In this document: positions 2,297-24,974 of the stretch, one piece after another
Layout of the letters: each line of letters begins with the position of its first letter
Position numbering within the stretch: position 1 is the stretch's first letter
Position numbers and translations under genes: made by a program
The notes under the pieces: generated by a model
Told to the model about the DNA's origin: nothing
What the model saw: only the letters and a program-made list of their open reading frames with translations
The model's database searches: none
IMG/VR virus record: IMGVR_UViG_3300028591_000108
Location: 32,001 to 96,000 of that record
Reading direction: 5' to 3' (one strand)
Origin: a virus
Lineage: Duplodnaviria > Caudoviricetes
Length of the DNA: 64,000 nucleotides

Positions 2297-2314
2297 GAAA
2301 GGAAGATAGTTAAC

Positions 2315-2979: not shown

Positions 2980-3008
2980 TATACCATCAAATGAAGGAGG
3001 TCACCACC

Positions 3009-7042: not shown

Positions 7043-7159
7043 GGACTTCCCCTTTATGGGAACTTAGATGTAATACATCTAATAATGGGTATTGACAATC
7101 ATATACAAGTCTGTTATACTATAATCACTCCAAAGGGAGAAGAAAGGAAGGTAACTAAC

Positions 7160-7396: not shown

Positions 7397-7523
7397 GCGA
7401 AAGCCTACTCTACTATTATTAGATGTAATACATCTAAAACAAACTGTTGACTTCTTCTCTTCTTTATGCTATCATATAATTGTTCCAAGGGGAACGAAAT
7501 AAATATGAAAGAGGGACACGAAC

Positions 7524-7763
7524 ATGACAATGACAATCGAAAAGAAACTGAGAGACTTTCACTTCTGGAGCGGAGCCGCCGCCAATGCCGCCAAGCTGAC
7601 TCCGGAAGAGCTCGATCAAGCTGAAGAATATATGGAAACTCTTCCCTTCAGCGACGAAGAGCACTGGAGCACTACCGAAGTCAATGATATTTTCTGGTTT
7701 GACTTTGAAAGCGTATGCGAATGGCTGGGCCTGGACTATGAGGAAGTAATGGCGAGGGAGTAA
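7524..7763 (+). CDS. Hypothetical phage protein
   Basis: FHFWSGA...TEVNDIFWFD motif; context. Confidence 0.8.
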   Translation: MTMTIEKKLRDFHFWSGAAANAAKLTPEELDQAEEYMETLPFSDEEHWSTTEVNDIFWFDFESVCEWLGLDYEEVMARE

Positions 7764-7883
7764 TCCCTCGCTTATTTTCATTTTGTACATTTAGATGTAA
7801 TACATCTAAGTTTATGGTTTGACATTCTCCTTAAACTATGTTATTATATACTTGTCCAAAGGGGACAGAAAGGCGGTAAGCAT

Positions 7884-8105
7884 ATGATTAAGATTACTAA
7901 GGGCATGGCACGGAAACTGTACAACCACGGCGAAGAAGTTATGATTATCCCTAACCGCATCCGACCCAATTCTGCGCTTGCAAGCTGGACTCGCAAGCCC
8001 GAGCAGGAAGAAGGAGACTTTGATAAGCTGTGCAATGCTATCTTCTATTATAACTGCTCGCCCGAAACCGGTATGAACCTTACCTATTATGCGAAGGAAG
8101 TTTAA
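7884..8105 (+). CDS. Hypothetical cassette protein
   Basis: RBS; context. Confidence 0.75.
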   Translation: MIKITKGMARKLYNHGEEVMIIPNRIRPNSALASWTRKPEQEEGDFDKLCNAIFYYNCSPETGMNLTYYAKEV

Positions 8106-8244
8106 AGTAAATAATAATGAAGTTACGCCTGATGAATAGGCGTAATTTCGTTTCCCATATTAGATGTAATACATCTAATAACATCCGTTGACTTCTCTCC
8201 CGTAATATGATATACTTACATCATCAAAAAGGAGGTGCGAAGCA

Positions 8245-8568
8245 ATGGAAATGACTTATCATGTGGCGGTTCAGAGGGCAGATAGAGTAAAGCATATCAC
8301 GGAAGAAATTGGTCTGGGGCAAATTATCAAAGAAAAATATACTCACTTCAATCTTGGCCAAGCTGGGCGCTGGGTTTGCATTACTGATACTGGTATTACC
8401 ATTATAAAGGATGAACCCAAAGAAAAAATTATTACTATGTATGTAACCACGCAGAGAGAGCTGGTGCTTGTATACGGCGGAGCAAAAAACGTGCCGGCTT
8501 TCCTGCGGAAAAAAGTGGATAAAAATCAGTCTAAGTATACGCAAGCTGGGAAAACCATTTGGCGCTAA
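8245..8568 (+). CDS. Hypothetical cassette protein
   Basis: RBS AAGGAGGT; context. Confidence 0.8.
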   Translation: MEMTYHVAVQRADRVKHITEEIGLGQIIKEKYTHFNLGQAGRWVCITDTGITIIKDEPKEKIITMYVTTQRELVLVYGGAKNVPAFLRKKVDKNQSKYTQAGKTIWR

Positions 8569-8669
8569 GCGCCAATTTGGTTTTCGGATTTAGATGTAAT
8601 ACATCTAAAATCCCATATTGACTTTTCTCCCATAATGAGTATAATTAACAGTGTCAGGAGGGATGAGAA

Positions 8670-8825
8670 ATGGAACGAGCAAGGTACAAGAAACTCGATG
8701 AACTCGCCGCTTGGGACTTGAACAAAGGTTGCCGCAAGTGGATTGACCAAAGCACACCCGCCAGACGGAGATTGAAAAAACGCTTGCGGAAGCAAGCACG
8801 GGCAAGACTGAAAGGAGAATGGTAA
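8670..8825 (+). CDS. Small basic hypothetical protein
   Basis: RBS AGGAGG; TAATG coupling to next gene. Confidence 0.6.
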   Translation: MERARYKKLDELAAWDLNKGCRKWIDQSTPARRRLKKRLRKQARARLKGEW

Positions 8826-9055
8826 TGAGAAATGCAAAAGAAGGAACTTATAACGGAGAGCCTACATTCTGCACGGTAAATGCTTATGGTGATTGTCCTT
8901 ACTGCGATCAGTGCGGCATCTGTCATATTGATGACCCGATGGAAGATTGCGAAGACTTCGCAATGTTCTTCCAAGGAGATTGGAATTTCTGGCTGAATTT
9001 GAAGGATGTTCCCGATGAAGGAGAAGACGCCGATGAATTTTGGTGGGATTATTAA
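8825..9055 (+). CDS. Cys-rich acidic hypothetical protein
   Basis: CPYC..C.IC motif; RBS AAAGGAG. Confidence 0.7.
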   Translation: MRNAKEGTYNGEPTFCTVNAYGDCPYCDQCGICHIDDPMEDCEDFAMFFQGDWNFWLNLKDVPDEGEDADEFWWDY

Positions 9056-9065
9056 GGAGAATAAA

Positions 9066-9335
9066 ATGGCGACTAAAATTTATATTATTACTCTTGAAGG
9101 CGAACCACAAGTTGCCTATACTGATTTCAATAAGGTTAAAGACGAAATTTTCAAATGGTTAGATGAACTCCGTAATGGTTGGTACGTTCGTAAAGAATTT
9201 AACTATTGGGTTGAAGGAAGAGATTATCCCAACACCGAAGAGGGCGAAGAGCAGGCATGGGAAGATTATAAAAATGAAGTAGTAGAGAACGGCACATGGG
9301 GCGACTATGCATGGTATGAGTGCTTCCTTAAATAA
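9066..9335 (+). CDS. Hypothetical protein
   Basis: RBS AAGGAG. Confidence 0.75.
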   Translation: MATKIYIITLEGEPQVAYTDFNKVKDEIFKWLDELRNGWYVRKEFNYWVEGRDYPNTEEGEEQAWEDYKNEVVENGTWGDYAWYECFLK

Positions 9336-9429
9336 GGAAGCCTTTCATACTTAGATGTAATACATCTAATTTTATCATTTGACTTTTCTCTAATTTTATT
9401 ATATAATGCCAATGTAAGGAGGGGATAAA

Positions 9430-9606
9430 ATGAGTAAGAAGAAAAACCCGAAACAGAAAACATGGGTTGAAGTATTTCAGTCTGAGCGCAAGGAATTTCC
9501 GCAGGGCTATTGTGTTACTCGCATTATCCCCGACAAGCGCAACAAGAAGCCGAAACATAAGGGAAGGGAATTTGCAGATCATTTAATTGATGTGTGCGGA
9601 GTATAA
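9430..9606 (+). CDS. Small basic hypothetical protein
   Basis: RBS AAGGAGG; MSKKKNPKQKTW... Confidence 0.6.
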   Translation: MSKKKNPKQKTWVEVFQSERKEFPQGYCVTRIIPDKRNKKPKHKGREFADHLIDVCGV

Positions 9607-9620
9607 GGAGGAGAGAAATA

Positions 9621-9755
9621 ATGTGTATTTATTGGTCAATGCTTTATGGCTGTATGCATCCAAAAGGAAAAGAAGAAGAGCCAACCGCTGATTGGACTTG
9701 TGAGGATACTTGCCCTTATTATCAAGATGAAGATGAAGAAGAGCATCCTATTTAA
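9621..9755 (+). CDS. Small Cys-containing hypothetical protein
   Basis: RBS AAGGAGG. Confidence 0.5.
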   Translation: MCIYWSMLYGCMHPKGKEEEPTADWTCEDTCPYYQDEDEEEHPI

Positions 9756-9772
9756 GAGAAGGGGTTTGAAAA

Positions 9773-9949
9773 ATGAATGAAGTAGTATATCATGTGCGTG
9801 ATGGTGAACTGTACATTTGTTTTGATAACATTTCGCAGGCTTTTCGATATGCACGTGCCTGTGGAAGTAAAGAAGTATTCAAGGAAGTCCCAGACCAAGT
9901 TGACTGGTATTATTGGGACTGGGACACTAAAAGGTGGGTGTATCCGTAA
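9773..9949 (+). CDS. Small hypothetical protein
   Basis: RBS AAGGGG; TAATG coupling to next gene. Confidence 0.55.
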   Translation: MNEVVYHVRDGELYICFDNISQAFRYARACGSKEVFKEVPDQVDWYYWDWDTKRWVYP

Positions 9950-10110
9950 TGAAGTATAAATGGGTAATTATGCAGGAACTTGAAGACACCAATTGCGCGA
10001 ATCCTTATTTGATTGTTGATTCAGAGGAGCGCGCCGAGGAACTTTGCTATAAGTTGGAATCCGAAAACCCAGGCTTTATCTTTTGGTCCTATCTTTGCGA
10101 GGAGGAGTAA
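9949..10110 (+). CDS. Small hypothetical protein
   Basis: Stop inside GGAGGA-GTAAT-TCCTCC terminator. Confidence 0.6.
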   Translation: MKYKWVIMQELEDTNCANPYLIVDSEERAEELCYKLESENPGFIFWSYLCEEE

Positions 10111-10210
10111 TTCCTCCTTTAGTTATTAGATGTAATACATCTAAAACCAAGACTTGCTTTTTCTTCCCGAATATGTTATTATACTCTTGCCGGAAGGGTA
10201 GAAAGGAGAA

Positions 10211-10441
10211 ATGAGAATGACGAATACCATCATGGTACTGTACGGCAAGAATGAAGATGGAGATGAACTGTTCGATAATCTGGATGAAGTAGAAGCATAT
10301 CATCTGTTCAATGAGCTGGTGAGTAATGCGAATACTTGTAACTATGCCGCTATCCGTTGGTATAGTGACGAGGGCACATACAAAATGTATGTAGATTTTG
10401 ACTCTAATCGCAATATCCGGGAAGAGATTAAGAACTGGTAA
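10211..10441 (+). CDS. Hypothetical protein
   Basis: RBS AAAGGAG. Confidence 0.7.
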   Translation: MRMTNTIMVLYGKNEDGDELFDNLDEVEAYHLFNELVSNANTCNYAAIRWYSDEGTYKMYVDFDSNRNIREEIKNW

Positions 10442-10455
10442 GGGAGGAAGAAAAA

Positions 10456-10656
10456 ATGGAAAATAAGACTTACAATAAAAACGGTATTGGCTTCTGCGGT
10501 CTGCTCACTATCGCCTTCATTGTCCTGAAACTGTGTGGTGTTATTAACTGGAGTTGGGTCTGGGTACTCGCCCCTCTGTGGATTGCTTGGGGACTTATCT
10601 TTATTATTCTTGGAATTGTATGTCTCGTTACCTTCATCCGTGACAGGTACTTCTAA
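10456..10656 (+). CDS. Small two-TM phage membrane protein
   Basis: GIGFCGLLTIAFIVLKLCGVINWSWVWVLAPLW motif common in phages. Confidence 0.8.
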   Translation: MENKTYNKNGIGFCGLLTIAFIVLKLCGVINWSWVWVLAPLWIAWGLIFIILGIVCLVTFIRDRYF

Positions 10657-10774
10657 TGCGGGAAACCGCATTTCATTTTCTATATTAGATGTAATACATC
10701 TAAAACAATCGTTTGACATTTTCCTTAATCTATGCTAATATATACTTGTTCCGAGGGGAACAGAAAGAGAGGAA

Positions 10775-11224
10775 ATGAGAATGAAGATTTATTTCGACAT
10801 GGACGGGACAATTGCTGATCTGTATGCCGTGGAAAATTGGCTCCCGAAACTGAGGGCTTCTGACGCTTCTCCTTATGAAGAAGCTGAGGTGATGCTCAAT
10901 ATGAGCTTGCTTGCTCGATACCTGAATAAGCTCCAGAAGCTCGGCTATGAAATCGGAATCATTAGCTGGACTTCCAAGGGCGGTACTGAGCAGTATAATC
11001 GAGCGGTTGAAGCCGCTAAGCTGAGCTGGCTTCGTGCCCACCTGCGTAGCGTTTCCTTCGATGAAATTTATATTGTAGAGTATGGTACTCCGAAGCAGGA
11101 TTTCGCCGATGAAGATGACATTCTGTTTGATGATAATGAAGAAATCAGAAATGACTGGACAGGCGAAGCATATGACCCTTCCGAAATCCTTTCTATTCTC
11201 TCTGGGTTACTCCATCAGGAGTAA
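10775..11224 (+). CDS. HAD-superfamily phosphatase, 5'(3')-deoxyribonucleotidase-like
   Basis: IYFDMDGTIADL motif I, IISW motif II, K...LFDDN motifs III/IV. Confidence 0.8.
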   Translation: MRMKIYFDMDGTIADLYAVENWLPKLRASDASPYEEAEVMLNMSLLARYLNKLQKLGYEIGIISWTSKGGTEQYNRAVEAAKLSWLRAHLRSVSFDEIYIVEYGTPKQDFADEDDILFDDNEEIRNDWTGEAYDPSEILSILSGLLHQE

Positions 11225-11511
11225 CCCAATTTCATTTCTGGGAATTAGATGTAATACATCTAAATCAAATACTTGCATTTTCCCAAATTTGTGATATACT
11301 GTAATTGTTCCAAGGGGAGAGGAAAATGAAGTGCCATGCACAGACACGCATTTATGCGATAGGACAGGCGCAATACGAAAACCTCACTTGCAAGTCCCTA
11401 AAGAACAAAAAGAAATTTCAAAAAAACACTTGACAAGCTCGAAAACCTATGGTATAATAACTACGAAAACAGGGGAAGGAAAACCCCCACAAACCAGAAA
11501 GGGAACTGATT

Positions 11512-11832
11512 ATGAAGAAGACCACCATGAACACCATCCTGTCTCTGATTGCCACCATCGACACTCCCGAAGCCGAAGCTGTTCGGACTGAGCTGACCGC
11601 TGAACTGAACCGCGGAAAGGCCAAAGCTGAAGCCAATCGGACTATCTATGGCGAGATTCACGATGCCGTGATCAAAGTTCTGAAGTCCGCTATTGCTCCC
11701 GTGACTGCCCAGGAGCTGGCTGACGAGACGGGGTATGCCAAGGGCAAGGTCGTCTACGGTCTGACCAATTACTGGACTGATGAAGTCGAGAAGATCGAAG
11801 GCAAGACTAACACTTACGTTCTCAAGGCGTAA
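11512..11832 (+). CDS. Winged-helix DNA-binding protein (paralog 1)
   Basis: PVTAQELADETGYAKGKVVYGL...EGKTNTY; close to 15302 and 17051. Confidence 0.7.
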   Translation: MKKTTMNTILSLIATIDTPEAEAVRTELTAELNRGKAKAEANRTIYGEIHDAVIKVLKSAIAPVTAQELADETGYAKGKVVYGLTNYWTDEVEKIEGKTNTYVLKA

Positions 11833-12001
11833 TTCCTTTCCTCTCGGGCGCTTCGGCGCCCTTTTATTTTAGAGTAGTTTTAGATGTATTACATCTAAAA
11901 TTGTATACAGTATACATTGTTGACAAAAAATAAAATTTATGATATAATTTCCTTGGAAATCAGGAGAAGGATACTCCTAAAACCGGAAGGAGAGATTTGA
12001 A

Positions 12002-12406
12002 ATGACGAAAGCACAGCTTGAAACCGCAATCCGTAATGACTTCCTGACCGCTATTTCTACTTTTATTTCCGAAAGCCGAGACACCGATGTACTTTCTGTT
12101 AGCACAAGCGAACTCGCTGTTCCTTGCCTTGATGCTATGGGCAACGAAAAATGGGTACTGATTAAGGTTTCTATTCCTCGTGGTACTCGCAACGGTGAAG
12201 GTGGTTATGACCCCTATGATGGTTATTCCGCCGCCGAAGATTACCAGATCGAACAGGCGGACAAGGCCGAAAAGAAAGCCAAAGCCGAAGAAAAGAAACA
12301 GGCGAAAATTGCAAAAGACCAGAAAGCAAGGGAAGAGAAGAAAGCCCTCGCCGAAGCGAATAAGGGCTTGAAGGAACTCCGCAAGATTAAAACTGAAGGG
12401 GAATAA
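12002..12406 (+). CDS. Hypothetical protein with K/A/E-rich coiled C-terminus
   Basis: RBS; similar architecture to 12537. Confidence 0.8.
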   Translation: MTKAQLETAIRNDFLTAISTFISESRDTDVLSVSTSELAVPCLDAMGNEKWVLIKVSIPRGTRNGEGGYDPYDGYSAAEDYQIEQADKAEKKAKAEEKKQAKIAKDQKAREEKKALAEANKGLKELRKIKTEGE

Positions 12407-12536
12407 TCCCCTTCTTTTTCTGAAAGGTTATTAGATGTAATACATCTAATTCTTCTTATTGACACTTTTTAAATTTCATGCTATACTATGCGTGAAAGGT
12501 GAAGGAAAACACCAGAAAACCAGAAAGGAATTTGAA

Positions 12537-12881
12537 ATGGCTAAGATTTCTAAGACCGTGGTTGATAAGGCTCTGCGTGATACTGTGTTCTCTGACCTCT
12601 TTACTGATGGATTAAAGGAAGATGGTTATACCAAAATCAATGATCGTCAGTGGGGCGTTCTCATTCAGGATTTGAATGGCGTCCAGCGGTATGTGCGTAT
12701 CGGCGCTATCGTTGCCGAAGAGCGTGAGGATATGACCGCCGAAGAGCTTATGCAGAACGAAATTGCCGCTTACGAAGCGAAGCAGGCAGACAAGGAAGCC
12801 AAGGCGCAGGCTCGCGCCGAAAAGGCGAAGAAGGATAAGGAGCGCAGAGCAAAGGAAAAGGAGGCAAAAGAAAATGCGTGA
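12537..12881 (+). CDS. Hypothetical protein with K/A/E-rich coiled C-terminus
   Basis: RBS AAAGGA; similar to 12002. Confidence 0.8.
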   Translation: MAKISKTVVDKALRDTVFSDLFTDGLKEDGYTKINDRQWGVLIQDLNGVQRYVRIGAIVAEEREDMTAEELMQNEIAAYEAKQADKEAKAQARAEKAKKDKERRAKEKEAKENA

Positions 12882-13107
12882 TTTATGGGCAGACTTCAAC
12901 CCTGCCCAACAGCAAATTTTTCAGCAGAATCTAAACAAGATTATACAATCGTGGAAAGATAATAGAGATTGCTTTGTCTGTAAATTTTGCCGTGACATTT
13001 CCGATAAGTGGAATACTTGCCACCTCTGTCAGCAGACCAATGACCTTATACCAGAAGAACATACTTGTTTACTGTGGGATTTGAAGGAGGAAGAAGAAAA
13101 TGTTTGA
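12874..13107 (+). CDS. Cys-rich hypothetical protein
   Basis: CFVCKFC...CHLC; overlaps stop of previous gene. Confidence 0.6.
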   Translation: MRDLWADFNPAQQQIFQQNLNKIIQSWKDNRDCFVCKFCRDISDKWNTCHLCQQTNDLIPEEHTCLLWDLKEEEENV

Positions 13108-13276
13108 TGAAGAAAAGTGCCCCTTTTGCGGTTGTGAAGACTACAAGGTTGACGACTACTGGGATAACTTCGATGAAGAGAGCGGTGAGCGAGTATGGGC
13201 GTGTACCTGTTCCAATTGCCACAGACAATATGAGATTACCTATACATACGAATGTACGAGAATTACAGTAAGTTAG
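13100..13276 (+). CDS. Zn-ribbon protein ending in TAG
   Basis: MFDEEKCPFCG...CSNC; RBS AAGGAGG; TAG inside AAGTTAGC-GCGA-GCTAACTT hairpin. Confidence 0.65.
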   Translation: MFDEEKCPFCGCEDYKVDDYWDNFDEESGERVWACTCSNCHRQYEITYTYECTRITVS

Positions 13277-13437
13277 CGCGAGCTAACTTCATTTTTTTAT
13301 GCTTAGATGTAATACATCTAAAATCTACTCTTGCATTTTCCCATATTTCTGTTATAATATACTTGTTCCTGATGAGGGGCACAAAGTGAGGAGAAGGAAA
13401 ACTCCCGTAATGAAACCCACGGCAGAAAGGACTCTAT

Positions 13438-14427
13438 ATGGCTCGTAAGGAAATGCGGTATCTGGTTCTCGATTGCGAAACTGCGACTCTTCCCTTTGCG
13501 TCTGAACTTGCAAATGGTGATGCAGAAAAGAAGAAGAAAATTGCTATTGCCCGCCCTCTGATTTATGATATCGGATGGACCATTACCAATCGCAAGGGCG
13601 AAATTCTGGATAGCAAGCAGTTTCTGATTGCAGAAACTTTCTCTGTTCCGTCTGTATTCAATACCGCATATTACGCCGAAAAGCGGCCGATCTATCTGGA
13701 AATGCTTCAGCGCAAAGAAACCAGTATTAAGACATGGTATGAAGTTGCCAGTCTGTTGGAACAGGATATGCAAAAAGTTAATGCTGTCGGCGCTTACAAT
13801 TCCATGTTTGATTTCAAAAAGGCTATCCCTTTCACGGAGCTTTATATAAATAAACTGTACAGTCCCGAATATCAGGCTTGGGAGCGTACTCAGCGCAATC
13901 TGTGCTATAAGATTATGAATGAACGATATCAGAAGAATGAAGACAAGGAATTTGATAGCGAAACGTTCAAATTCCGTGGTAATGAATACCCTCTGTTCGA
14001 TCTCTGGGGACTTGCTACTAAACATCTTCTGAACAATGTTTCTTATAAGAAGCAGTGTCTGACTAATGAGATGCTCACGGCAAGCGGAACTTTCTTTAAG
14101 ACGAGCGCAGAAGCAACTTTCCGGTATCTGATGGATAAGTATGACTTCAACGAAGCGCATACCGCTCTCGATGATGCTACTATTGAAACTTATATTCTGA
14201 GCCAGATTGCAAAGAAAAGCGCAATTACTCTTGGGATTATCTTCTTCCCTTTCAGGGAACTTGGAACAACGGATGAATTTGTTCTGAGACTGAAAAAGCC
14301 GAAGCAGGAAGAAATTAAAATCGTGATTGATGCTATGGCGCATTATCTGACTACTAAAGAACCGTCCGCATATACTGCTCATATTCAGAATATCGTTTCT
14401 TGCCTGACAGAGTACCTCCCCATGTGA
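13438..14427 (+). CDS. DEDDh 3'-5' exonuclease (DnaQ/RNase T-like)
   Basis: LVLDCETAT (ExoI), AYNSMFD (ExoII), HTALDDA (ExoIII). Confidence 0.85.
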   Translation: MARKEMRYLVLDCETATLPFASELANGDAEKKKKIAIARPLIYDIGWTITNRKGEILDSKQFLIAETFSVPSVFNTAYYAEKRPIYLEMLQRKETSIKTWYEVASLLEQDMQKVNAVGAYNSMFDFKKAIPFTELYINKLYSPEYQAWERTQRNLCYKIMNERYQKNEDKEFDSETFKFRGNEYPLFDLWGLATKHLLNNVSYKKQCLTNEMLTASGTFFKTSAEATFRYLMDKYDFNEAHTALDDATIETYILSQIAKKSAITLGIIFFPFRELGTTDEFVLRLKKPKQEEIKIVIDAMAHYLTTKEPSAYTAHIQNIVSCLTEYLPM

Positions 14428-14536
14428 GGTACTCCTTTTTTCTCCCGAAATATTAGATGTATTACATCTAACTATATCTCTTGACTATTTTTCCTTCCTA
14501 TAGTATACTTGTATCATCAAAGAGGAGGTAGGAGCG

Positions 14537-15046
14537 ATGAAAGATTACGAAATTCAGGCCAGAACGTTGCTTCAGAAACTTTATCCTTACATTGAGCATC
14601 TGACTGATGTTTGGAGCATTGACAATGCTATTACGGAGTTTAATTATAAGAATGAAACTCAAATTGAATTGAAATATGGTTCTACCCGTATCGCGCTCAT
14701 TTGCAATGATTTCGTCATTAAATTTAACTATAACGGTTGGGGTTCCGGCCGTTTTGGAAATGGTGCCAGTGAAGTGCGTATGTACCGTAAAGCAGTCAAA
14801 GACGGTTTCGGATATTTGTTTGCTCCCATTGTTCCTGTCCGCAAAGGATATAATCGTACTTTCTATATTATGCCTAAAATTCATGATATTGGCAAGTGCG
14901 ATGAAAATGCCGAAGAGTTCTTGAATGGCGAAGAGTACGATTATATTGACAGTAATATTGGAGATACTCACTATGAAAATTATGGTTGGGAAGATGGCCA
15001 TATTGTATTAATTGATTATGCGTATAATATCACACTCTGGCAGTAA
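14537..15046 (+). CDS. Minimal protein-kinase-like protein
   Basis: YGSTR...FVIK, E, DTHYENYG catalytic loop, LIDYA. Confidence 0.7.
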   Translation: MKDYEIQARTLLQKLYPYIEHLTDVWSIDNAITEFNYKNETQIELKYGSTRIALICNDFVIKFNYNGWGSGRFGNGASEVRMYRKAVKDGFGYLFAPIVPVRKGYNRTFYIMPKIHDIGKCDENAEEFLNGEEYDYIDSNIGDTHYENYGWEDGHIVLIDYAYNITLWQ

Positions 15047-15301
15047 GCCAGAGTTTCTCTATTAGATGTATTACATCTAAAACCAATTGTTGACTTTTTC
15101 TAAAATTGTGATATACTATAATTGTTCCGAGGGGAAAGGGAATCCTCCTGCTGGGAGATGAAGCACCTAATGTGAGATAGGGTGCGGGGACTCACAAAGT
15201 TGAAAAAACTTTCCCTTTCCCCTTGACAAAATCCCAAATCTATGATATACTAATCACGAACAAAGGGAAGGACACCCTACAAACCAGAAAGGAATTTGAC
15301 G

Positions 15302-15622
15302 ATGAAGAAAGTTACTATCGAGACTCTGGTTGCCTATCTGAACGGTGAGACTGTGACCAATCTGGATGAAATCAAGGCTGAACTGGAAGCCGAACTGAAC
15401 AAGGGCAAAGCGCAGAAGGAAGCTAATCAGGCGATTTACGCCGAGATTCATGATGCCGTGATCGAAGCCCTGGCTTCTGCGGAAAATCCCGTTACCGCTC
15501 AGGAACTGGCCGATGAGACTGGTTACCCGAAGGGTAAGATCGTATATGGTCTGTCTCACTACTGGAACGAAGAGATCAAGAAGATCGAGGGTAAGGTTAA
15601 TTCCTACGCTCTCAAGGCGTAA
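15302..15622 (+). CDS. Winged-helix DNA-binding protein (paralog 2)
   Basis: IYAEIHDAVI...PVTAQELADETGYPKGKIVYGL. Confidence 0.7.
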   Translation: MKKVTIETLVAYLNGETVTNLDEIKAELEAELNKGKAQKEANQAIYAEIHDAVIEALASAENPVTAQELADETGYPKGKIVYGLSHYWNEEIKKIEGKVNSYALKA

Positions 15623-15688
15623 ACTTTCCCTCCCACGAGGATTTCTAAGGGCTTTCAGTGTGGCTAAACAACATAAGCCCTTCTATAT

Positions 15689-15799
15689 GGGAAGTGCAAG
15701 CTACTTCAGGGTTGTAGCCACCAAGTTTCGGAAGAAACAGAGTGAATGAGTGGAAACGCGATGACGCCCACTGGAGTTCAAATCTCCCACTTTCCACCA
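15689..15799 (+). ncRNA. tRNA-like RNA (8-bp acceptor/4-bp T-stem, G3-U70, encoded CCA, no anticodon loop)
   Basis: GGGAAGTG pairs with CACTTTCC-A-CCA; T-arm GGAG-TTCAAAT-CTCC; D-like arm GCTAC-TTCAGGGTT-GTAGC; central GTTTC-GGAA-GAAAC. Confidence 0.55.
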
Positions 15800-16014
15800 G
15801 AAGAGTTTTCGGGAGTACAGTTCTCTTGGGCGAAAAACAAAACTGCTCTCTGACGGGTATCAAAGATACCGCCAACCGCCTTCGGGCGGTATTTTTTTTC
15901 AAATAAATTTAGATGTATTACATCTAAATATATCTCTTGCGCTTTTCCCGTAATATGATATACTATTAGCATGAAGTGAAGGAATAACACTATAAAACCA
16001 GAAAGGCAATTAAT

Positions 16015-16767
16015 ATGAATGTACTGGTACTGGATACGGAAACCACCTCTCTTGACAAGCCCTTTTGTTATGACTGTTCATGGGTTATCATGAATACCGA
16101 TTCCGGCGAATTGGTTGATTTTTCTGCTAATGTTATTGAACAGGTATGGCATAATCTTCCCCTGTTTGAATCCTCCTATTATAAGGAAAAGCGCCCCAAA
16201 TATATCACTATGATGCGCAATCATTCCGCTTGTATGGATAAATGGGGCTATGTTATGAAGAAATTAGCAAGAGCTATTCGCCAGTATAATATCACTGATG
16301 TTTATGCTTATAACAGCGACTTCGATGATAAAGTAATTATTTTTAATTGCGATTGGTATAAATGTAATAATCCCCTTGAAACTGTAGCTATTCATGATAT
16401 TTGGGGATATGCGAGTGCTTATGTAACAGGCACAAAAACATATAAAGCATTTTGTGAAAAGTATTCTCGTTTTACTGATACCGGCAACTATAAAGGTAGT
16501 GCAGAAGTAGTATACCAGTATCTTACAAATAACCCCGATTTCATTGAAGAGCATATGGGACTGTTTGACAGTGAAATTGAAGCACAGATTCTGTACGCTT
16601 GTATGCAGATGGGCGCTAACTGGGGCGAAGATTTGAAAGTAAATAAAATTCTCCCCAGAGTACAAGAAACACCGTTTACAATTAAAGTCAATGGCGAAGA
16701 ATTGTATCAGGGGAAATATGTTAAGAAATATGTACGTAATGGTACTTATTCCTTCACAACTCTGTAA
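16015..16767 (+). CDS. DEDDh 3'-5' exonuclease (paralog of 13438)
   Basis: LVLDTETT, AYNSDFD, HMGLFDS; shared YYxEKRP.Y and KxSAE motifs. Confidence 0.85.
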   Translation: MNVLVLDTETTSLDKPFCYDCSWVIMNTDSGELVDFSANVIEQVWHNLPLFESSYYKEKRPKYITMMRNHSACMDKWGYVMKKLARAIRQYNITDVYAYNSDFDDKVIIFNCDWYKCNNPLETVAIHDIWGYASAYVTGTKTYKAFCEKYSRFTDTGNYKGSAEVVYQYLTNNPDFIEEHMGLFDSEIEAQILYACMQMGANWGEDLKVNKILPRVQETPFTIKVNGEELYQGKYVKKYVRNGTYSFTTL

Positions 16768-17050
16768 CATATGGGCGCATCTGCGCCCGTATCATATTTA
16801 GATGTAATACATCTAATAGAAACACTTGCGTTTTTCTGAAATTTGAGTATAATAATAATTGTTCCGAGGAGATGAAGGAACAGACCAAGTGCTCAATGGG
16901 TATTATCTGGCCCGAGCGTGTGGACTTCTGCAGTTCGCCACACAAAATTCCCCGAAAAAAATGCTTGACAAAAGCAAAAATCCATGATATAATAACTACG
17001 AAAGATGAAGAGAAGGAAAACTCTTAAAAAACCAGAAAGGAATTTTGAAA

Positions 17051-17377
17051 ATGAAGATCACCACCTACGCCACCGTTTACTCCTTCCTGACTGCTAATGG
17101 TTTCGACAATGCTGAGATTCTCGCTGAGTTCGAGAAGGAACTGAATCGCAACGCTGAAGCGAAGCAGGCGAAGGAAACCCTGTACGCCGAAGCTAAGCCC
17201 ATTGTTCTGGGTGCGATGGACGCTCCTGCCACGATTACCGAGATTTTCGAAGCGGTGAAGGAGACTCTGCCCGATGGCTTCACGAAGGGCAATCTCCAGT
17301 ATGCGGTGACTCGTCTGTGGAAGGACGAGGTTGAAAAGACCGAGGGCAAGGTCAACACCTACGCTCGCAAGACGTAA
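17051..17377 (+). CDS. Winged-helix DNA-binding protein (paralog 3)
   Basis: PATITEIFEAV...FTKGNLQYAVTRLW...EGKVNTY. Confidence 0.65.
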   Translation: MKITTYATVYSFLTANGFDNAEILAEFEKELNRNAEAKQAKETLYAEAKPIVLGAMDAPATITEIFEAVKETLPDGFTKGNLQYAVTRLWKDEVEKTEGKVNTYARKT

Positions 17378-17519
17378 TACCACCGAACACCCTCCCTTAC
17401 GGGAGGGTTTCTTTTATTTCAAATTATTAGATGTGTTACATCTAATTTCTCATATTGACATTCTCCCATAATGTGGTATAATGGCATTGTTCCAAGAGGA
17501 TAGAAAGGATGGATTGAAA

Positions 17520-17726
17520 ATGATTGGAAAATGGTGCAAAGAACATAGTATTACTTATGATTATGAAGATATAATTAAAACGCTTGCGCAATATGTATCA
17601 GGAATGGATGGCTCTACACTTACTAAAGCAGATGGTAAAGCCTTACATAAAATGTATGAAATTAATCCAGAAATTCTAAGTTTACTATGCAATGCTTTTG
17701 AAGATAAAGGCTATGAATCATTTTAA
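17520..17726 (+). CDS. Hypothetical protein
   Basis: RBS AAAGGATGG. Confidence 0.65.
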   Translation: MIGKWCKEHSITYDYEDIIKTLAQYVSGMDGSTLTKADGKALHKMYEINPEILSLLCNAFEDKGYESF

Positions 17727-17750
17727 GGAATAGAAAGGGATAGGACGAGA

Positions 17751-17990
17751 ATGAAGATTGAATTTAATGTTCACGGCGTATTTGACTTTGACTTTAGCGA
17801 GAAACGGCAGGAAGAATTACTTCAAGATGCAAAGAGCTATCCGGGCGGTATAGTTTCTCTCTTGCTTGATAATTTGGAAATTGCACGCGATGAAGTTTCA
17901 ACGGAAAGTATTTTTACCATTGACCCTTACCAATTTGCTAAAATGCTTAGCGTATTGATAAAAAAAGAAAAAGAAGAAAATGCTCCCTGA
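17751..17990 (+). CDS. Hypothetical protein
   Basis: Stop in AAATGCTC-CCTGA-GAGCATTT hairpin. Confidence 0.7.
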   Translation: MKIEFNVHGVFDFDFSEKRQEELLQDAKSYPGGIVSLLLDNLEIARDEVSTESIFTIDPYQFAKMLSVLIKKEKEENAP

Positions 17991-18106
17991 GAGCATTTTT
18001 ATTTTACAACTATTAGATGTATTACATCTAAAGTACAATATTGACTTTTCTTATAATTCTGATATAATAAGATTGTTCCAAGAGGAACAGAAAGGATGGA
18101 GCGAAA

Positions 18107-18343
18107 ATGAAAATCTACGCTGTTGAATGTATCAGTGGTGAAGTAATGGGGCCTTGTGGGCTTTTTTCTACGATGAATCTTGCTATCAGTGAAACTATTC
18201 ATCGTAATAGTTTTCGTACTGATACTCCTACCATTGAGATGAATGATATTGACGCAGGAATTGTTTACGAAGGCAATGATGATTATAACTATACCGAATA
18301 TTATATTAGAGAATATGAACTGAATAAATGGGAGGAGAATTGA
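18107..18343 (+). CDS. Hypothetical protein
   Basis: RBS GGAG; context. Confidence 0.7.
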   Translation: MKIYAVECISGEVMGPCGLFSTMNLAISETIHRNSFRTDTPTIEMNDIDAGIVYEGNDDYNYTEYYIREYELNKWEEN

Positions 18344-18345
18344 AA

Positions 18346-18513
18346 ATGAAGTGGTATCGTATTAAGTATGGTTGGAACTTTTATCATATCAGAAATCCCT
18401 TTACGATGTGGCGCTTTTATCATGACGAAGAAGCAAGCGGGTGGTGTGATCGCCTTCACGCCCTCATTAACCGCAGTGAACGGGAAGGATGTGTTGAGAA
18501 TGCAGACAATTAA
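18346..18513 (+). CDS. Small hypothetical protein
   Basis: RBS GGAGGAG. Confidence 0.55.
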   Translation: MKWYRIKYGWNFYHIRNPFTMWRFYHDEEASGWCDRLHALINRSEREGCVENADN

Positions 18514-18757
18514 GAATTGGTTCGGTATCGAAACCGCTTACCGCTTTGAATGGAATGACGTTCGGTGTGGAATTACCATTCTCAACGTGATTCTGATTAT
18601 GCTCTTCGGTTTGCAGGTATCATGGTTCGGCCTTGCCGTTGCTCTCTTCGGCGTATGTAAAGACTTGTCCCAGCATCGACACATCAATGATGTTTTAATG
18701 CATCTCTCAAGCGTAGTTCTCAATCTTTATTTCCTTTCCCTCCTTTATGGCGGTTAA
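18500..18757 (+). CDS. Membrane protein
   Basis: Three hydrophobic segments; stop in terminator. Confidence 0.7.
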   Translation: MQTIKNWFGIETAYRFEWNDVRCGITILNVILIMLFGLQVSWFGLAVALFGVCKDLSQHRHINDVLMHLSSVVLNLYFLSLLYGG

Positions 18758-18868
18758 ACCGCCATTTCATATTTAGATGTTTAACATCTAAATTAAGCGA
18801 TTGACTTTTCCTAAATTTGTGGTATATTATAATTGTTCTGAAGAGAACGGAAAGGAAGGAAAAATATA

Positions 18869-19129
18869 ATGGATATGGAAACAAGAGTCTATACAATCAG
18901 TCTTTATAATTATCATGGCGAAACTTATGAAGAGCGTTACTTTCAGATGAAACACGCGCTCGCCCGCTTCATTGAATTACAAGAAGAGGGCAAAACGCAT
19001 GATGAGTTTAAGTTTGACCAAGATTACTTTAAGTTCTTCGACGCCGATTATAATGAATATTGTACTTATATTGCTTTTACTAATTGCGCTCTCAAAGATT
19101 TATTTGTGGATGAAATGGAGGCAAAATAA
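18869..19129 (+). CDS. Hypothetical protein
   Basis: RBS; context. Confidence 0.7.
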   Translation: MDMETRVYTISLYNYHGETYEERYFQMKHALARFIELQEEGKTHDEFKFDQDYFKFFDADYNEYCTYIAFTNCALKDLFVDEMEAK

Positions 19130-19324
19130 ATGAGTGAGTTTGAAACTATGTGCCGTATGATTACCAAGTTCCCTCCTCGGAATGAATATGGCGAAGACCA
19201 GTATAAAATAAAGAAAATCCGTAAAGGGCATATTATTTATTTTGCCACTGATGATTCTTATTGTTGGGCAAGTTTATATTTCAATTCCGAAGGTAAATTT
19301 ATAGGCTTCTGCTCGCCCGACTGA
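19130..19324 (+). CDS. Hypothetical protein
   Basis: RBS GGAGG. Confidence 0.65.
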   Translation: MSEFETMCRMITKFPPRNEYGEDQYKIKKIRKGHIIYFATDDSYCWASLYFNSEGKFIGFCSPD

Positions 19325-19404
19325 AAACAATTAAATGCGCCCTTATGGGCGCATTTTCTCTAAAGAGAATTAGATGTATTACATCTAATAATAAAATGCC
19401 CTGC

Positions 19405-19689
19405 TTACCGCAAGGCATTTTTTACTTTATCCCAAAACGATGGTACTTCAATATAGAAATCAGATACACCAACTTTATAATACGGTATTTTTATACCATT
19501 CTGTTCTTTCAAATACCACAGTTCATCATAGTCAGGATGCGTAGGATACCATTGCGCTTTTCCTACTTCATAATAGATTCCAATAATATTCTCATCGCTA
19601 AGATAACCTTCATACTCTTCTGCTCCAATAATTTCCTCATCAGTCCACGGACAATAGAGAATGATACGCTTTTTCTTAATCTTTTTCAC
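19405..19689 (-). CDS. Hypothetical protein (inverted block)
   Basis: RBS GGAGGT; GTGA overlap with upstream gene. Confidence 0.7.
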   Translation of the reverse strand: MKKIKKKRIILYCPWTDEEIIGAEEYEGYLSDENIIGIYYEVGKAQWYPTHPDYDELWYLKEQNGIKIPYYKVGVSDFYIEVPSFWDKVKNALR

Positions 19690-20060
19690 GTTCCCGACAC
19701 CTCCCTATACGCCATTTTCCAAGCCGCGTGCAATGCTTCATGACTCGTAGGTTGCGGAATATTCCCAGTATAATAAGACAGAAGAGATTTATCTATTTGT
19801 CTATACTTTCTCAAATCATCATCGTATGCGGCAATCAGATTCAAAATACGCTTCTGATAGGTTTCAATCTCTTGAAGTTCTACATTTTTGTCCGGCCCAT
19901 CAGGAAGCATTTCTGCACTTCCTTTACACACAATAATCTTGTGACAATAGTTTCTCATCAATTGCTTATGCTCACACAGATTGTTTAACAGCTCTTTCAT
20001 GTGAATATCTTCACCGCTCCAAATTTCCTGCTCTTTCTTTCTTCCAAACATTTCTTTCAA
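19686..20060 (-). CDS. Hypothetical protein (inverted block)
   Basis: RBS AAAGGAG; minus-strand promoter 9 bp from palindrome 20119. Confidence 0.7.
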   Translation of the reverse strand: MKEMFGRKKEQEIWSGEDIHMKELLNNLCEHKQLMRNYCHKIIVCKGSAEMLPDGPDKNVELQEIETYQKRILNLIAAYDDDLRKYRQIDKSLLSYYTGNIPQPTSHEALHAAWKMAYREVSGT

Positions 20061-20169
20061 CTCCTTTCTGAGTACAGATACATTATAACAGAATATAAAG
20101 AAAAGTCAAGCACCCTCTTTAGATGTATTACATCTAACTTTAATAAGAGGAGCAAAACTCCTCTTCTCC

Positions 20170-20655
20170 TTAATATCCTAAGTCATAGCGCCCGTCTTCA
20201 TAATGTCCATATACCCAGTATTTCTTATACTCCGTATCGAACCAAGAAACATATCCACAATTTTTCAAATCATCCTTAAATTCTTCTTCAGTAAATTCAT
20301 CTCCGTCTGCCCAATACGCACCCTGCCGGAAAACTTTCCAGACCTCTTCCGGTACAAGATTGTGACGACCATAGCCCTTATAATGAGCGATTACGGTTGG
20401 CGCTACGTCTTCATGGTCTTCACAATCATTATCCCAATAATACAGCGCCATTCCCTCATTCATAGAATCTTCGTACTGCTTTACCAGTTCCGCTTCTTCA
20501 TTATCTACAAACTTATATACTTCAAACCGATAAGTCGGATGATTCTTATTAAACCAATCTTCCCAATCATTCACCAGAAACATCGGTTCACGATCAGCAT
20601 CACATTCATACTGGTCACCAAGTTCTACGCACTTTACAATCAGATACTTCGTCAT
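20170..20655 (-). CDS. Acidic hypothetical protein (inverted block)
   Basis: RBS AAAGGAG; promoter 9 bp from palindrome 20742. Confidence 0.8.
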   Translation of the reverse strand: MTKYLIVKCVELGDQYECDADREPMFLVNDWEDWFNKNHPTYRFEVYKFVDNEEAELVKQYEDSMNEGMALYYWDNDCEDHEDVAPTVIAHYKGYGRHNLVPEEVWKVFRQGAYWADGDEFTEEEFKDDLKNCGYVSWFDTEYKKYWVYGHYEDGRYDLGY

Positions 20656-20773
20656 TTTATAGCTCCTTTCGGTTTCTCAGTGTTTTCCTTCACTTCATGT
20701 CTGTATTATATCACAAGTATAGAAAAAGTCAAGCAACGCTTTTAGATGTATTACATCTAACTTCTCAAGACCG

Positions 20774-21178
20774 TCAGACAGTCTTGCAGTAGAAACACCA
20801 TTTAATATCAAAAACATATTTCAATTCAAATCCTTCAGTCTCTAATAAATGCCGCATCCCCATATTGTCGCTCCATGGCGTAGCTCCAATATTTCCATGC
20901 GCTATTTTTGCACATTCGTGTAGCGCAAAACGAGCTATACCTTTTCCCTGATTTTTCTTATTACAAATACATAATCTTTTGATAGCGGTATATCCATACT
21001 GTTCCTCTGGCACAAGAGATACTGTAGCCAGCACCTTTTCCCCTTCCGCAACGACGTATAATTTCTCATTACAATAATCTGCTTTTACCAACTCGGGAGT
21101 AATATAAGATAAGTCTTTACAATAAAGAGCTTTCACAACCTTTATCAAGTCGGTGCGAGTTGCCTGTCTAAATTCCAT
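20774..21178 (-). CDS. GNAT-family acetyltransferase
   Basis: IKRLCI...QGKGIA motif A; N..MRHLLETEGF. Confidence 0.8.
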   Translation of the reverse strand: MEFRQATRTDLIKVVKALYCKDLSYITPELVKADYCNEKLYVVAEGEKVLATVSLVPEEQYGYTAIKRLCICNKKNQGKGIARFALHECAKIAHGNIGATPWSDNMGMRHLLETEGFELKYVFDIKWCFYCKTV

Positions 21179-21390
21179 TTCTTCATCCCCTCTCGGTTGA
21201 TATCTATATTATACTCGAAAATAGAAAAAAGTCAATGGCCACTTTAGATGTATTACATCTAACTTTTCCTCTTGACAAATCAAATGTTCATGTGCTTCCG
21301 AACATTTCGCCCTAAATCTCTACTAATGTTTATTACTTGACATGTCGGCGCCTTATCCCATAAGCTACATTTCCGCTGTCAAGTACTTGA

Positions 21391-21635
21391 CAAGCTGCAT
21401 AAGCTGGAAAAGCTGGAATTCATGTTGGTGAGTTGCGGCTGAGAAGCTGCAAGCTGGACAAGCTGGAATTCCGTCGATGCCTCGAGATTATGCGCCGCCA
21501 GCTGCGAGCTGGAAACCTTATACGAGCTGGAGCCTCGAAAAATTAAATCCGCCGATTTTCGGCCCGCGGCAAGCTGTGATGTTCGGCTCACATATTGGAA
21601 CAACGCGGCCCTCCACAAGCTGGAATTCCGTCGGA
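21391..21635 (+). repeat. Strand-biased AGCTG(G) repeat cluster
   Basis: About 11 AGCTG copies in ~230 bp; ACAAGCTGGAATTCCGTCG present twice. Confidence 0.7.
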
Positions 21636-21748
21636 GTGAAAATTCGGGGCTCCGCCAGAAAAGAAAATTTATTACAAGTCAAATATTTGACTTTCGCGCA
21701 AATTTCGTGTATAATTATTATAGAAAAAGAGAAAAGGAGCTGGTAATT

Positions 21749-21940
21749 ATGGTAACGAGAACGTATTACTTTCCCCGCAATCAGATCGGCCGCTATCTCA
21801 TCAATTATATCTACGAGCGCGTTGGCTGCTCTATTGGCGACATTAAATGCCACCAGGAAACGCTGGCAGTGCCTATGACTTTTGCCGCGAAAGATGAAAT
21901 TAAAGTAATTAAAATTTTGGAACGATATGACCTCGCCTAA
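21749..21940 (+). CDS. Small hypothetical protein
   Basis: Promoter at 21687, RBS AAGGAG. Confidence 0.7.
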   Translation: MVTRTYYFPRNQIGRYLINYIYERVGCSIGDIKCHQETLAVPMTFAAKDEIKVIKILERYDLA

Positions 21941-22053
21941 TACTTGACTTTTTCAAAATTTTCTGTTATAATATAAGTGTTCCAAGGGAACAAGAATAAA
22001 AATTTGTGCAGGTGGGTCTGCCGTAACTAAACCCAAGAGTAAAAGGAGTAAAA

Positions 22054-22542
22054 ATGACTATTAATGAACTGAAAACTATCCTGTCCGGTATCGAAGGCGC
22101 TCAGAACGCTCGTGCTAACAAGACTAACTTTATCGTTGTCCCCTGTGAAGATGGTATTGCCAAGGTGAATATGCAGGTTGCACTCGCCAAGGATACCAAG
22201 AATCATACCGCTTTTAATCTGGAAGCTGCTATCGCAGAATATAAGGCTTGGGAAGCTGAAGGTGCCCTCCGTGCCGCTGAGCGTGCCGCAAAGCCCAAGG
22301 TTGTAAAGGGCCCGAACCCTGAAGCTCAGGCCAAGCGTGATGAACTGGATGCCAAGATTACTGCGCTACCTGCTTTCACTGAGTATACTGCGACCGATAT
22401 TTTCAACGCGCTGGCTGGTCAGCTGCCTGAGAATATGCTGGTCATGCAGATCGGTTCTGCTGCTAAGCGCCTTGTAAAGGCTGGCGTGCTGACCGTTTCT
22501 ACCAAGGATGGCGACAAGAAGTCTTACTACACCAAGGCTTAA
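22054..22542 (+). CDS. Protein with C-terminal winged-helix domain
   Basis: YTATDIFNAL...QIGSAAKRLVKAGVL...KSYY. Confidence 0.7.
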   Translation: MTINELKTILSGIEGAQNARANKTNFIVVPCEDGIAKVNMQVALAKDTKNHTAFNLEAAIAEYKAWEAEGALRAAERAAKPKVVKGPNPEAQAKRDELDAKITALPAFTEYTATDIFNALAGQLPENMLVMQIGSAAKRLVKAGVLTVSTKDGDKKSYYTKA

Positions 22543-22792
22543 TCCGTTTATGGGACTGCGCGAGCAGTCCTATTTTTTTTAATACGTCGATTGTATACAG
22601 TATACATATTTGACTTTTTTCCAAATTTATGGTATCATATTTATAGAATGGGAATATTGATTTGCTGGATACTAGCAAGCTGGAGACTGTGGATATGAAG
22701 GTAGTGGCGACATACGAATAAAAAGAAAGGGGTAGGCGCAATGCCTACCCCTTTTATTTATTAACTAATATTAAGAGTTAAACTAATCAATA

Positions 22793-24151
22793 TTATAGTA
22801 CATTTGTATCCTCCTTAGCTTCTACTAAAGCAAGAAAATCATTATCTTTTATTTCTGCGTCATGCCATTCACCAGTGATATAACACACCTGTTGCTATTT
22901 TCCTTTGATAGTACGTTTCTTCTATGTTACTGTATAACCAATAGCTGGAAGGCAATCGCGCAGACTATTCCAAGTCATAATCTTTGAATTATTTTTATTC
23001 GCTTTATCCAAGCTGGGGACGGCCATAAGTTCAGCTAATTCACGGCATTCGGGAATAGTAAGCCACCTATTTAAATACTCCTCTGGAATTTGAGAACATA
23101 ATGTTTTTAAATGACGCTAGTACTAAAATGTCTATCGCGGCGCTTGTATTCTATCATCAGCATCGTATGAATCTATAATAACATTATCAAAACGTTTGTC
23201 TATAATATTGATTCCGCGCGCCAAAGCTTTATTCACTACTACAAAATCATATTCCATAGGCACCATTCCTGTAGTAACAATAATATCATATACACGTTTT
23301 TGCTCGGCGTCCATCGGCTTATCAGTATTACTTAACGAATGTAATTCGATAGCGTTAAAGCCACGCTCGTTCGCCGCATTAACTATTCCTTGATTGGGCT
23401 CTATAAAAGGCGAATAGCACCAATAACCACGACCTGGCTCGGGCGTGAGTTTTTTAATATGAGTTACAATATTTGTAAAATAAATATCTGCGGCAATACG
23501 ATAACCTGCTTCTAGTTTACCTGTATTACTAGCGCTTACCAAGCTGGAATAATACTTCCTCGCACGCTCAGGAGTAGCAGATAAGCCAATACACAATATT
23601 CTTCCAGCATTAATAATTTCTTCCCATTTACCTAATAAAATAAGTGGAAGATACTCTTTCGTACTAGAATATGTTTGAATAACAGAAAGGATTTCAGCAT
23701 TTGAAAACTCTTTATCCTTTCTATTATAGTCCCGAGTGCGCGCGAGTTTAAAAGCCGAAGTTGCAAAATCAAAAATAGAATCGCATTCATCCCAACAAAT
23801 TACATCTACATTTTCCAAAAACTATCCCTAGCCTTTTAGTAATTTCATTCCGAAACCCTAGTAGCACATTACGCCAATCTTATTTGTTGTTTCTCCCCAA
23901 ATAGAGGGAGTCTCCCAGAATATGTCCGCATCTGCGCAGACATCCGAATATGATTCTAAAATGGAATCCTTGAGTGCGTTTGTATCTACTAGATATAATA
24001 CTCGATTCAGGGCCCCGTCTCGCGTATAATCCTATAAATGATTTACAGCCCAGTATGTTTTGCCTGTACGTGTGCCGCAATCCAAAATATTATACATGCC
24101 GCGGCGAAAAAATAATTTATTCTAAGCTGCTAAATCTGATACTGTTGTCAT
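22793..24151 (-). CDS. Superfamily 2 helicase (452 aa, TAG=Gln)
   Basis: One frame broken only by TAG: DCGTRTGKT (I), WDECD (II), LSATP (III), ARGINI (V); RBS GAGGTG. Confidence 0.8.
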
Positions 24152-24428: not shown

Positions 24429-24974
24429 CGCGCCGCAGGCGCGACTAACAGTCAAACTTATAATTTGTCAAATACTTGACTTTTCTCAATTTATATGATA
24501 TAATAGAAAAAAAGAGAGAAAAAATAAGAAAAATATTTGACTTTTGCGAAAATTTGACGCACACACCCAAAAAATACCTATTTTCTTACAAAATTTTGTT
24601 GCAACTCGTAAAAATTTACTACCCCGACCCCTTTCCCATACCGGAAAATTTCGTAATTTCATTTCTTTTTCTTCTCTTTTATTTCGGGTGAAGATGTCCA
24701 CACTAGAAACCCAAAACTTGGCGTCATCCCACTACAAATCTATCGGGGTGATAGAATGTCATTATAGAGTATTTTATTAGATTTAAATGCTAACGATGGC
24801 CCAAATATTCCATAGCGCACACTTGCTGTCTATTGCGGTATTACATAGCCGCAACTTAATTAGTTTATGCGGACTGGGAGCGGCATTAGTGAAGAGAAGC
24901 AAGCGCAGGTTCGGAAGGGACTGGAAGAATTGGCGCTTGAGATTTATAGAACAGTTAAAGGAGACTAATTTGTT

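Follow-up and report, generated by a model that had tools for sequence, protein, structure and literature searches.

A conserved reversed arm at the end of a palindrome-punctuated early-gene array in TAG-recoded rumen phages

The early-gene array of an uncultured, TAG-recoded rumen phage ends in a short block of reversed units bounded by two copies of a symmetric palindrome, and the same block, in the same orientation, is present in its close relatives. We consider it probable, though some way from certain, that this block is a fixed and conserved leftward arm that arose by ordinary repeat recombination at the symmetric palindromes in the ancestor of the group. The short leftward arm of the cassette array would then meet a long rightward arm at one shared promoter-less palindrome, and the palindrome itself would most likely be the binding site of a dimeric protein, placed 9 nt upstream of each −35 box.

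The window, that is, the whole 64,000-nucleotide stretch of DNA analysed here, comprises bases 32001–96000 of a 141.9-kb IMG/VR virus record (G000) with an estimated completeness of 78%. Ten related records (G001–G010) were fetched for comparison, and the exact palindrome was found in 29 stretches of IMG/VR contigs. Three further metagenome contigs (L104, L105 and L106), retrieved with a pattern anchored on the outer flank of the block, cover the right junction only. The stretch occurs in public metagenome runs from sheep, goat and bovine guts; runs X3–X24 contain only small shares of it, and no habitat claim is based on them. Family matches are near absent in this lineage. A DNA search with positions 17000–24000 against 50,697 phage records gave zero matches, and no Rfam family reached its gathering score within the window. 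When about 100 ORFs were scanned against Pfam and PHROG with TAG read as glutamine, the majority of phage genes had no family match, and recombinases, annealing proteins and clear regulators were absent among the matches listed.

The palindrome array and its reversed block

The palindrome TTAGATGTA-N-TACATCTAA is present in 36 copies between positions 2633 and 21262 of the window, compared with 0.09 expected by chance, and none was found outside this interval when the whole 141.9-kb record was searched. It is 19 bp long, reads identically on both strands and constitutes the longest exact repeat of the array. All sites were printed with their flanks, and promoters and hairpins were scored on both sides, yielding a common unit order of terminator hairpin, 7–20 nt, palindrome, usually 9 nt, TTGACA, 16–17 nt and TATAAT, downstream of which lie a short leader, often with a small hairpin, a ribosome-binding site and one to four small genes. 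This order is oriented on the plus strand at all 32 sites from 2633 to 18773. The distance from palindrome to −35 box is fixed, that from palindrome to terminator is variable, and sites flanked by promoters on both sides keep a spacing of 8–10 nt on each side. Within the palindrome, conservation covers the two 8-bp arms, the 3-nt core between them is free to vary, and the half-site centres are 11 bp apart.

The centre base is T on the plus strand at the four sites of the reversed block and also at 8 of the 32 others, including 6 of the 7 sites just upstream of the block, and it may be A, T, G or C in relatives. The AAT core, which a preliminary description of this DNA had taken as a mark of site orientation, therefore carries no weight. 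A hairpin or cruciform reading of the palindrome was also considered; A/G variants at arm position 3 pair within the site at 20/39, no more than chance (P = 0.64), which argues, though not strongly, against a requirement for the two arms to pair. The half-site variant TTGGATGT, with G at arm position 3, and its counterpart TTAGATGT are seen in all four arm combinations, the mixing being located at G002 14354–19557 and G010 68824–90911, and in G002 the variant TTGGATGT is limited to one array end. At a single site (window 11880–11950) the −35 box lies 21 nt from the palindrome instead of 9 nt; the extra bases contain a second small palindrome, TGTATACAGTATACA, and the displaced layout is also found in G001 at 121836. 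At least two leader classes recur after the −10 box between 2633 and 21244, one with a small hairpin (TTGTCC-gaag-GGACAA or TTGTTCC..GGAACA) directly after the start site, the other with GAAGTGAAGGAAAACAC...AAACCAGA (at 12431, 15909 and, reversed, 20742).

The reversed block and its flanks are laid out as follows, in window positions unless stated otherwise.

19333..19356, plus strand: terminator hairpin of the last forward cassette (genes 18869–19324), −20.1 kcal/mol, z −6.3, also in the terminator scan
19370..19388, no strand: promoter-less palindrome at which the forward and reversed arms converge and which both share, with a terminator on each side (terminator-palindrome-terminator) and a promoter on neither
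19393..19421, minus strand: terminator hairpin of the reversed two-gene unit, −17.9 kcal/mol, z −5.3, conserved in relatives
19405..19689, minus strand: ORF of p94 (94 aa), second gene of the unit driven from 20109
19686..20060, minus strand: ORF of p124 (listed at 124 aa), probably starting from the ATG at 20051, which follows GGAG
20082..20109, minus strand: sigma-70-type promoter TTGACT-16-TATAAT, 9 nt from palindrome 20119 (promoter scoring)
20119..20137, no strand: internal palindrome (palindrome search), read on the minus strand as terminator-palindrome-promoter
20170..20655, minus strand: ORF of p161 (161 aa), without family match
20705..20732, minus strand: promoter TTGACT-16-TATAAT, 9 nt from palindrome 20742, leader class as in the forward units at 12431 and 15909
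20742..20760, no strand: internal palindrome (palindrome search)
20774..21178, minus strand: GNAT acetyltransferase gene, 134 aa (PF00583, E 2.2e-5)
21208..21235, minus strand: promoter TTGACT-16-TATAAT, 8 nt from palindrome 21244 (promoter scoring)
21244..21262, no strand: outermost array palindrome, with a real promoter on the minus side and a −35-like box on the plus side (palindrome search and promoter scoring)
21272..21307, plus strand: outer element, TTGACA at +9 without a −10 box, then the inverted repeat AAATGTTC/GAACATTT, conserved in relatives

On the minus strand, the site at 20119 drives p124 and p94, that at 20742 drives p161 and that at 21244 drives the GNAT acetyltransferase gene. 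The Pfam and PHROG scans gave no match for p94. The two inner reversed units have weak terminators, in which the U-run is poor or missing. The anatomy given in the preliminary description stands. The minus-strand units between 19370 and 21244 are indeed the only such palindrome-bounded cassettes; a minus-strand superfamily-2 helicase gene (22796–24151, TAG as residue) lies nearby, however, 1.5 kb to the right of the block. Site 19370 has terminators on both sides and no promoter, as described. At 21244, −35 boxes had been reported on both sides, and both are present, the minus-strand box as part of a complete promoter and the plus-strand TTGACA at 21272–21277, exactly 9 nt from the palindrome, but the expected −10 position of the latter is occupied by GCTTCC. 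The further statement that flipping 19389–21243 restores the unit order everywhere is thus correct for the left junction and fails at the right one.

The helicase gene (ResIII, E 3.6e-8) lies past the array end. It is interrupted by 10 TAG codons in frame, has a promoter of its own at 24198–24170, and keeps its minus orientation in relatives. Between it and the array, just outside the last palindrome, window 21263–21630 forms a distinct control-like region with three TTGACA boxes that lack a −10 box, four AAGCTGGAATTC-type repeats and a perfect 16-bp palindrome, TGTCAAGTACTTGACA, at 21377–21392, of which a copy with two mismatches at 24466–24481 overlaps a promoter. Parts of this region are conserved in G001, G005 and G010, and it may serve as a set of operators for a different regulator, or as an origin. 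As an RNA fold, the inverted repeat of the outer flank (21282–21307) was not significant (z −1.4).

Two long frames depend on TAG being decoded as a residue, one of 3,087 aa (32 TAG; window 42193–51456, plus strand) and one of 5,511 aa (160 TAG; 1625–18160 of the full G000 record, minus strand), and the late genes are accordingly TAG-recoded. The genes of the 36-unit early array contain no in-frame TAG.

Orientation of the block in related phages

Both junctions of the block recur in relatives. Window 19369–22652 is collinear with G001 at 79% identity, with both junctions and the outer flank included, and in G001, G002 and G005 the forward array ends at a promoter-less palindrome that is followed by two or three reversed units and then by an outermost palindrome with a real promoter inside and an orphan TTGACA-16-GCTTCC outside. 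The state of the right junction is identical in all seven genomes or contigs that contain it (G000, G001, G002, G005, L104, L105 and L106), as is that of the left junction in all four (G000, G001, G002 and G005). A more distant record, G010 (98% complete), also terminates in a reversed arm, with p124 within it. Overall, a reversed distal arm was found in nine of the ten arrays whose distal end is present, comprising one to three reversed units of varying gene content. In all of these arrays the outer flank has a TTGACAA or TTGTCAA box some 9 nt beyond the last palindrome, including the equivalent place in G003, G006, G007, G009 and G010, and the outer element at 21272..21307 is conserved in G001, G002, G005, L104, L105 and L106. 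In G004, which has no reversed units, the terminator, the palindrome and the outer element stand in direct succession.

The promoter-less palindrome is identical at 19/19 positions in G000, G001, G002 and G005; its right flank is 85% alike, and its left flank only 38%, because different cassettes abut the palindrome there. Retention of the palindrome where there is no promoter suggests that it probably has a boundary or roadblock role besides its promoter-linked one. Together with the fixed distance to the −35 box and the conserved arms around a free core, this conservation fits a dimeric DNA-binding protein.

The gene content of the arm is less constant than its orientation. Homologues of p94 (57–71% identity) and p161 (69–82% identity) occur in G001, G002, G005, G006 and G009, p161 always being directed against the main array, while p124 is reversed in G001, G005 and G010 but has the forward orientation in G006 and G009. 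In G002 the whole GNAT unit is missing palindrome-to-palindrome, and in G005 another gene takes its place. The two-gene unit 18773–19370, right at the convergent joint, is an extra cassette of G000 that is missing at that place in G001, G002 and G005; G005 has a homologue of it at another position in its array.

Judged from these alignments, the orientation of the block is old, inherited and conserved, and reflects neither a strain-specific event nor an assembly error. The preliminary description had proposed a comparison of block orientation across relatives, stating beforehand that a shared orientation with a conserved promoter-less site would speak against its reading, and this is the pattern found. 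A recent, active or strain-specific inversion of the block is not supported, in view of the same junctions in G001, G002 and G005, the right junction of L104–L106 and the arm of G010. The possibility that the assembler flipped the block at the repeats, also raised there, has some basis in that identical self-complementary 19-mers bound the block; however, other samples that were assembled independently show the same junctions, positions 20951–21481 are matched with zero differences by a 531-nt Logan contig of run X1 (the sheep-rumen sample of origin), and usual assembly k-mers are longer than 19. Such an error can be excluded for practical purposes, its probability being negligible.

A second alternative is that the block is a programmed invertible segment, with a Gin/Hin/Cin-like or Rci-like enzyme acting at the palindromes and both orientations present in the population. 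A symmetric 19-bp site with a variable centre would suit such an enzyme, flips are present in relatives, and an unrecognised enzyme could exist among the many phage proteins without assigned function. The constancy of the right junction (7/7) and left junction (4/4) argues against it, as does the right junction itself, where the flipped state would leave a −35 box without a −10 box. Logan contigs of public runs list no strand-changing joints, which is a weak argument as contigs break at repeats and drop rare variants; their 'skip' joints have sides of 20–23 nt, approximately the palindrome length, and look like repeat placements, or like joints from relatives lacking a unit. In profile searches of five genomes, of which three have a completeness of 98% or more, serine recombinases (Resolvase, PF00239) were found in 0/5 (controls 12/14), tyrosine recombinases (PF00589) in 0/5 (controls 14/14) and HUH Y1 transposases (PF01797) in 0/5, control genomes for the last also giving matches. 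On this evidence we regard an invertible segment as very improbable: as far as assembled contigs reveal, in which minority orientations are invisible, the block is a conserved convergent arm and not a phase-variable switch.

In a variant of this idea, the phage would encode a recombinase or nuclease of an unrecognised family that acts on the palindrome; the array would be integron-like, capturing cassettes in either orientation, and the reversed arm would be the footprint of that system. This variant appears improbable as well. The empty serine, tyrosine and HUH searches make general recombination between repeats the most likely route.

Flips, moves and breakpoints elsewhere in the array

Single cassettes have changed direction and place in relatives. 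For example, the unit 4004–4288, which encodes a 55-aa protein, is forward in G000, G001, G006, G007, G008, G009 and G010 and inverted in G002, where the match runs exactly palindrome-to-palindrome and the flip yields a terminator-palindrome-terminator site and a two-promoter site with 9-nt spacing on both sides. Since this cassette has other neighbours in G002 than in G000 and G001, excision with reverse re-entry is as likely as a flip in place. Similarly, the 169-aa unit (14453–15062) is forward in G000, G001, G002 and G007 and both inverted and relocated in G006, G008 and G009. Between the flanking genes up129 and dn89, gene order is p161(−), p124(+), p94(−) in G006 and G009, which represent a sister clade, and p94(−), p124(−), p161(−) in G000, so that the sister clade has the opposite gene order with one gene flipped. 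Under a reversals-only model, getting from the G000 to the G006 arrangement takes a minimum of three reversals bounded by palindromes, whatever the root placement, and the shortest such path passes via the all-forward order.

Breaks in homology also coincide with the palindromes. Among 151 homology ends inside the array, taken from G000 versus six relatives, 37 (24.5%) lie within 3 nt of a palindrome outer edge compared with 1.3% by chance (~18-fold), bearing in mind that the ends are not independent and that the invariant palindrome extends alignments. At the level of alignment, this pile-up shows that homology stops at the palindrome and not in the promoter or terminator, and does not thereby place the crossover inside it. 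Moreover, as a palindrome stands between all units, rearrangements that preserve units must break within ~50 nt of one, so that breakpoints 'exactly at' a palindrome, as the preliminary description had it, are partly forced.

This proximity raises the alternative that the palindrome is purely regulatory, as an operator or boundary, and that random illegitimate events are followed by selection for intact units and one site per junction. Nearby breakpoints, forced in part by a site between all units, are compatible with it, as are the fixed −35 spacing and the conserved promoter-less site, which indicate selection on the site itself, and when half-site variants were tested for moving together with their own cassette, the result was not significant (P = 0.16). 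We nevertheless consider this account unlikely, because homology ends cluster within 3 nt of the palindrome edges and not across the ~50-nt spacer, two-promoter sites hold a spacing of 8–10 nt on both sides, and whole units are missing from palindrome to palindrome, as with the GNAT unit in G002.

The reading of the palindrome as a recombination seam is supported by the flips, moves and homology breaks seen among related genomes, and its standing as the longest exact repeat, symmetric on both strands, makes it a suitable one. The reversed units carry promoter and leader modules of the forward-unit type, so at some time their direction within the array must have changed. Every direction-change joint retains one intact palindrome with normal spacing on both sides, for which exchange at or within the palindrome is the simplest account. 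To this extent the proposed exchange at palindromes is retained: given the flips and moves in relatives, it offers the most economical explanation of a change of orientation.

Homology-driven ordinary recombination would join cassettes at this seam by one of two routes. Either two palindromes would recombine with each other, or a cassette would be cut out as a circle and re-enter at any palindrome, the symmetry of the seam presumably allowing the circle to enter in either direction. The reversed arm may have formed by en-bloc inversion or by reverse insertion in the ancestor of the whole group, after which its orientation would have been inherited unchanged while single cassettes were gained, lost and replaced. 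A repeat of 19 bp is short for RecA-type recombination, which counts against this explanation.

Comparison with known systems

Phage early regions are a main store of small genes without known function, including host-takeover and anti-defence genes, and, to our knowledge, the fast turnover of such genes is known in detail only for the promoter-early stem-loop (PeSL) cassettes of T4-type phages. According to published accounts, PeSLs are regulatory cassettes whose flanking motifs recombine and release circles by homologous recombination, with no dedicated enzyme (Arbiol et al. 2010, PMC2839356; Comeau et al. 2014, PMC4122927). PeSL units also resemble those of the present array in that small genes, mostly without relatives, are bracketed by a repeated terminator and a strong sigma-70-type early promoter, and in that related phages gain, lose and replace whole units at the motifs. 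Here, 36 junctions carry a terminator hairpin, the palindrome and TTGACA-16/17-TATAAT, and the presence, absence or replacement of units has breakpoints in the motif (the GNAT unit, the unit 18773–19370 and 37/151 homology ends). In contrast to PeSLs, a separate, perfectly symmetric 19-bp palindrome lies between terminator and promoter, at a fixed 9 nt from the −35 box, and is kept even without a promoter. Units occur in flipped orientation too, which produces promoter-palindrome-promoter and terminator-palindrome-terminator joints; no unit inversion turned up in the available text of PMC2839356, where matches to 'inver' refer to inverse PCR. Host type, phage lineage and sequence are unrelated, the motif showing no kinship with T4-type myoviruses by DNA match among the 50,697 phage records, and circles are proposed here by analogy. 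The likeness, as an analogy, is thus one of working principle and not of descent.

Inversion between short, partly symmetric sites is known from Gin/gix of Mu, Cin/cix of P1, Hin/hix and the Rci/sfx shufflon of R64, the last with several 19-bp sites and many arrangements. The present array differs from serine-invertase and shufflon systems in that neither a serine nor a tyrosine recombinase was found in the five genomes, the orientation of the block is fixed, and its 36 sites are promoter-linked and mostly of one functional direction; among close relatives, both block orientations were not observed (right junction alike in 7/7, from assembled contigs). Integrons usually contain promoter-less cassettes that are separated by attC sites, which are imperfect palindromes, and are inserted in one orientation by the tyrosine recombinase IntI, with circular intermediates. 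They share with the array a series of small unrelated genes and palindromic sites as points of cassette gain and loss, whereas every unit here comes with a promoter and a terminator of its own, and the search of the five genomes found no integrase. A relationship to REP/RAYT or IS200/IS605-type elements finds no counterpart either, no HUH Y1 transposase having been found in any of the five genomes.

As for the sites themselves, the stoperators of Cluster A mycobacteriophages are dozens of short protein-binding sites in intergenic spaces that act at promoters and block transcription elsewhere; they are asymmetric, 13–14 bp long, oriented with transcription and bound by the monomeric immunity repressor of temperate phages (PMC9283540). 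The present phage likewise has many copies of one short intergenic site with putative protein binding, usually 9 nt from the −35 box and identical at 19/19 positions in four genomes where no promoter adjoins it, but its site is palindromic, and no integrase was found in this phage group (five genomes). By analogy, the putative dimeric protein may act at promoters and perhaps, stoperator-like, as a boundary, and selection on the palindrome without an adjacent promoter points to such a boundary function. The block is best annotated as a conserved convergent arm rather than as a phase-variable switch. More generally, the array suggests that the PeSL principle also operates in an unrelated, TAG-recoded rumen phage group, with the addition of a symmetric seam at which units can change direction as well as place.
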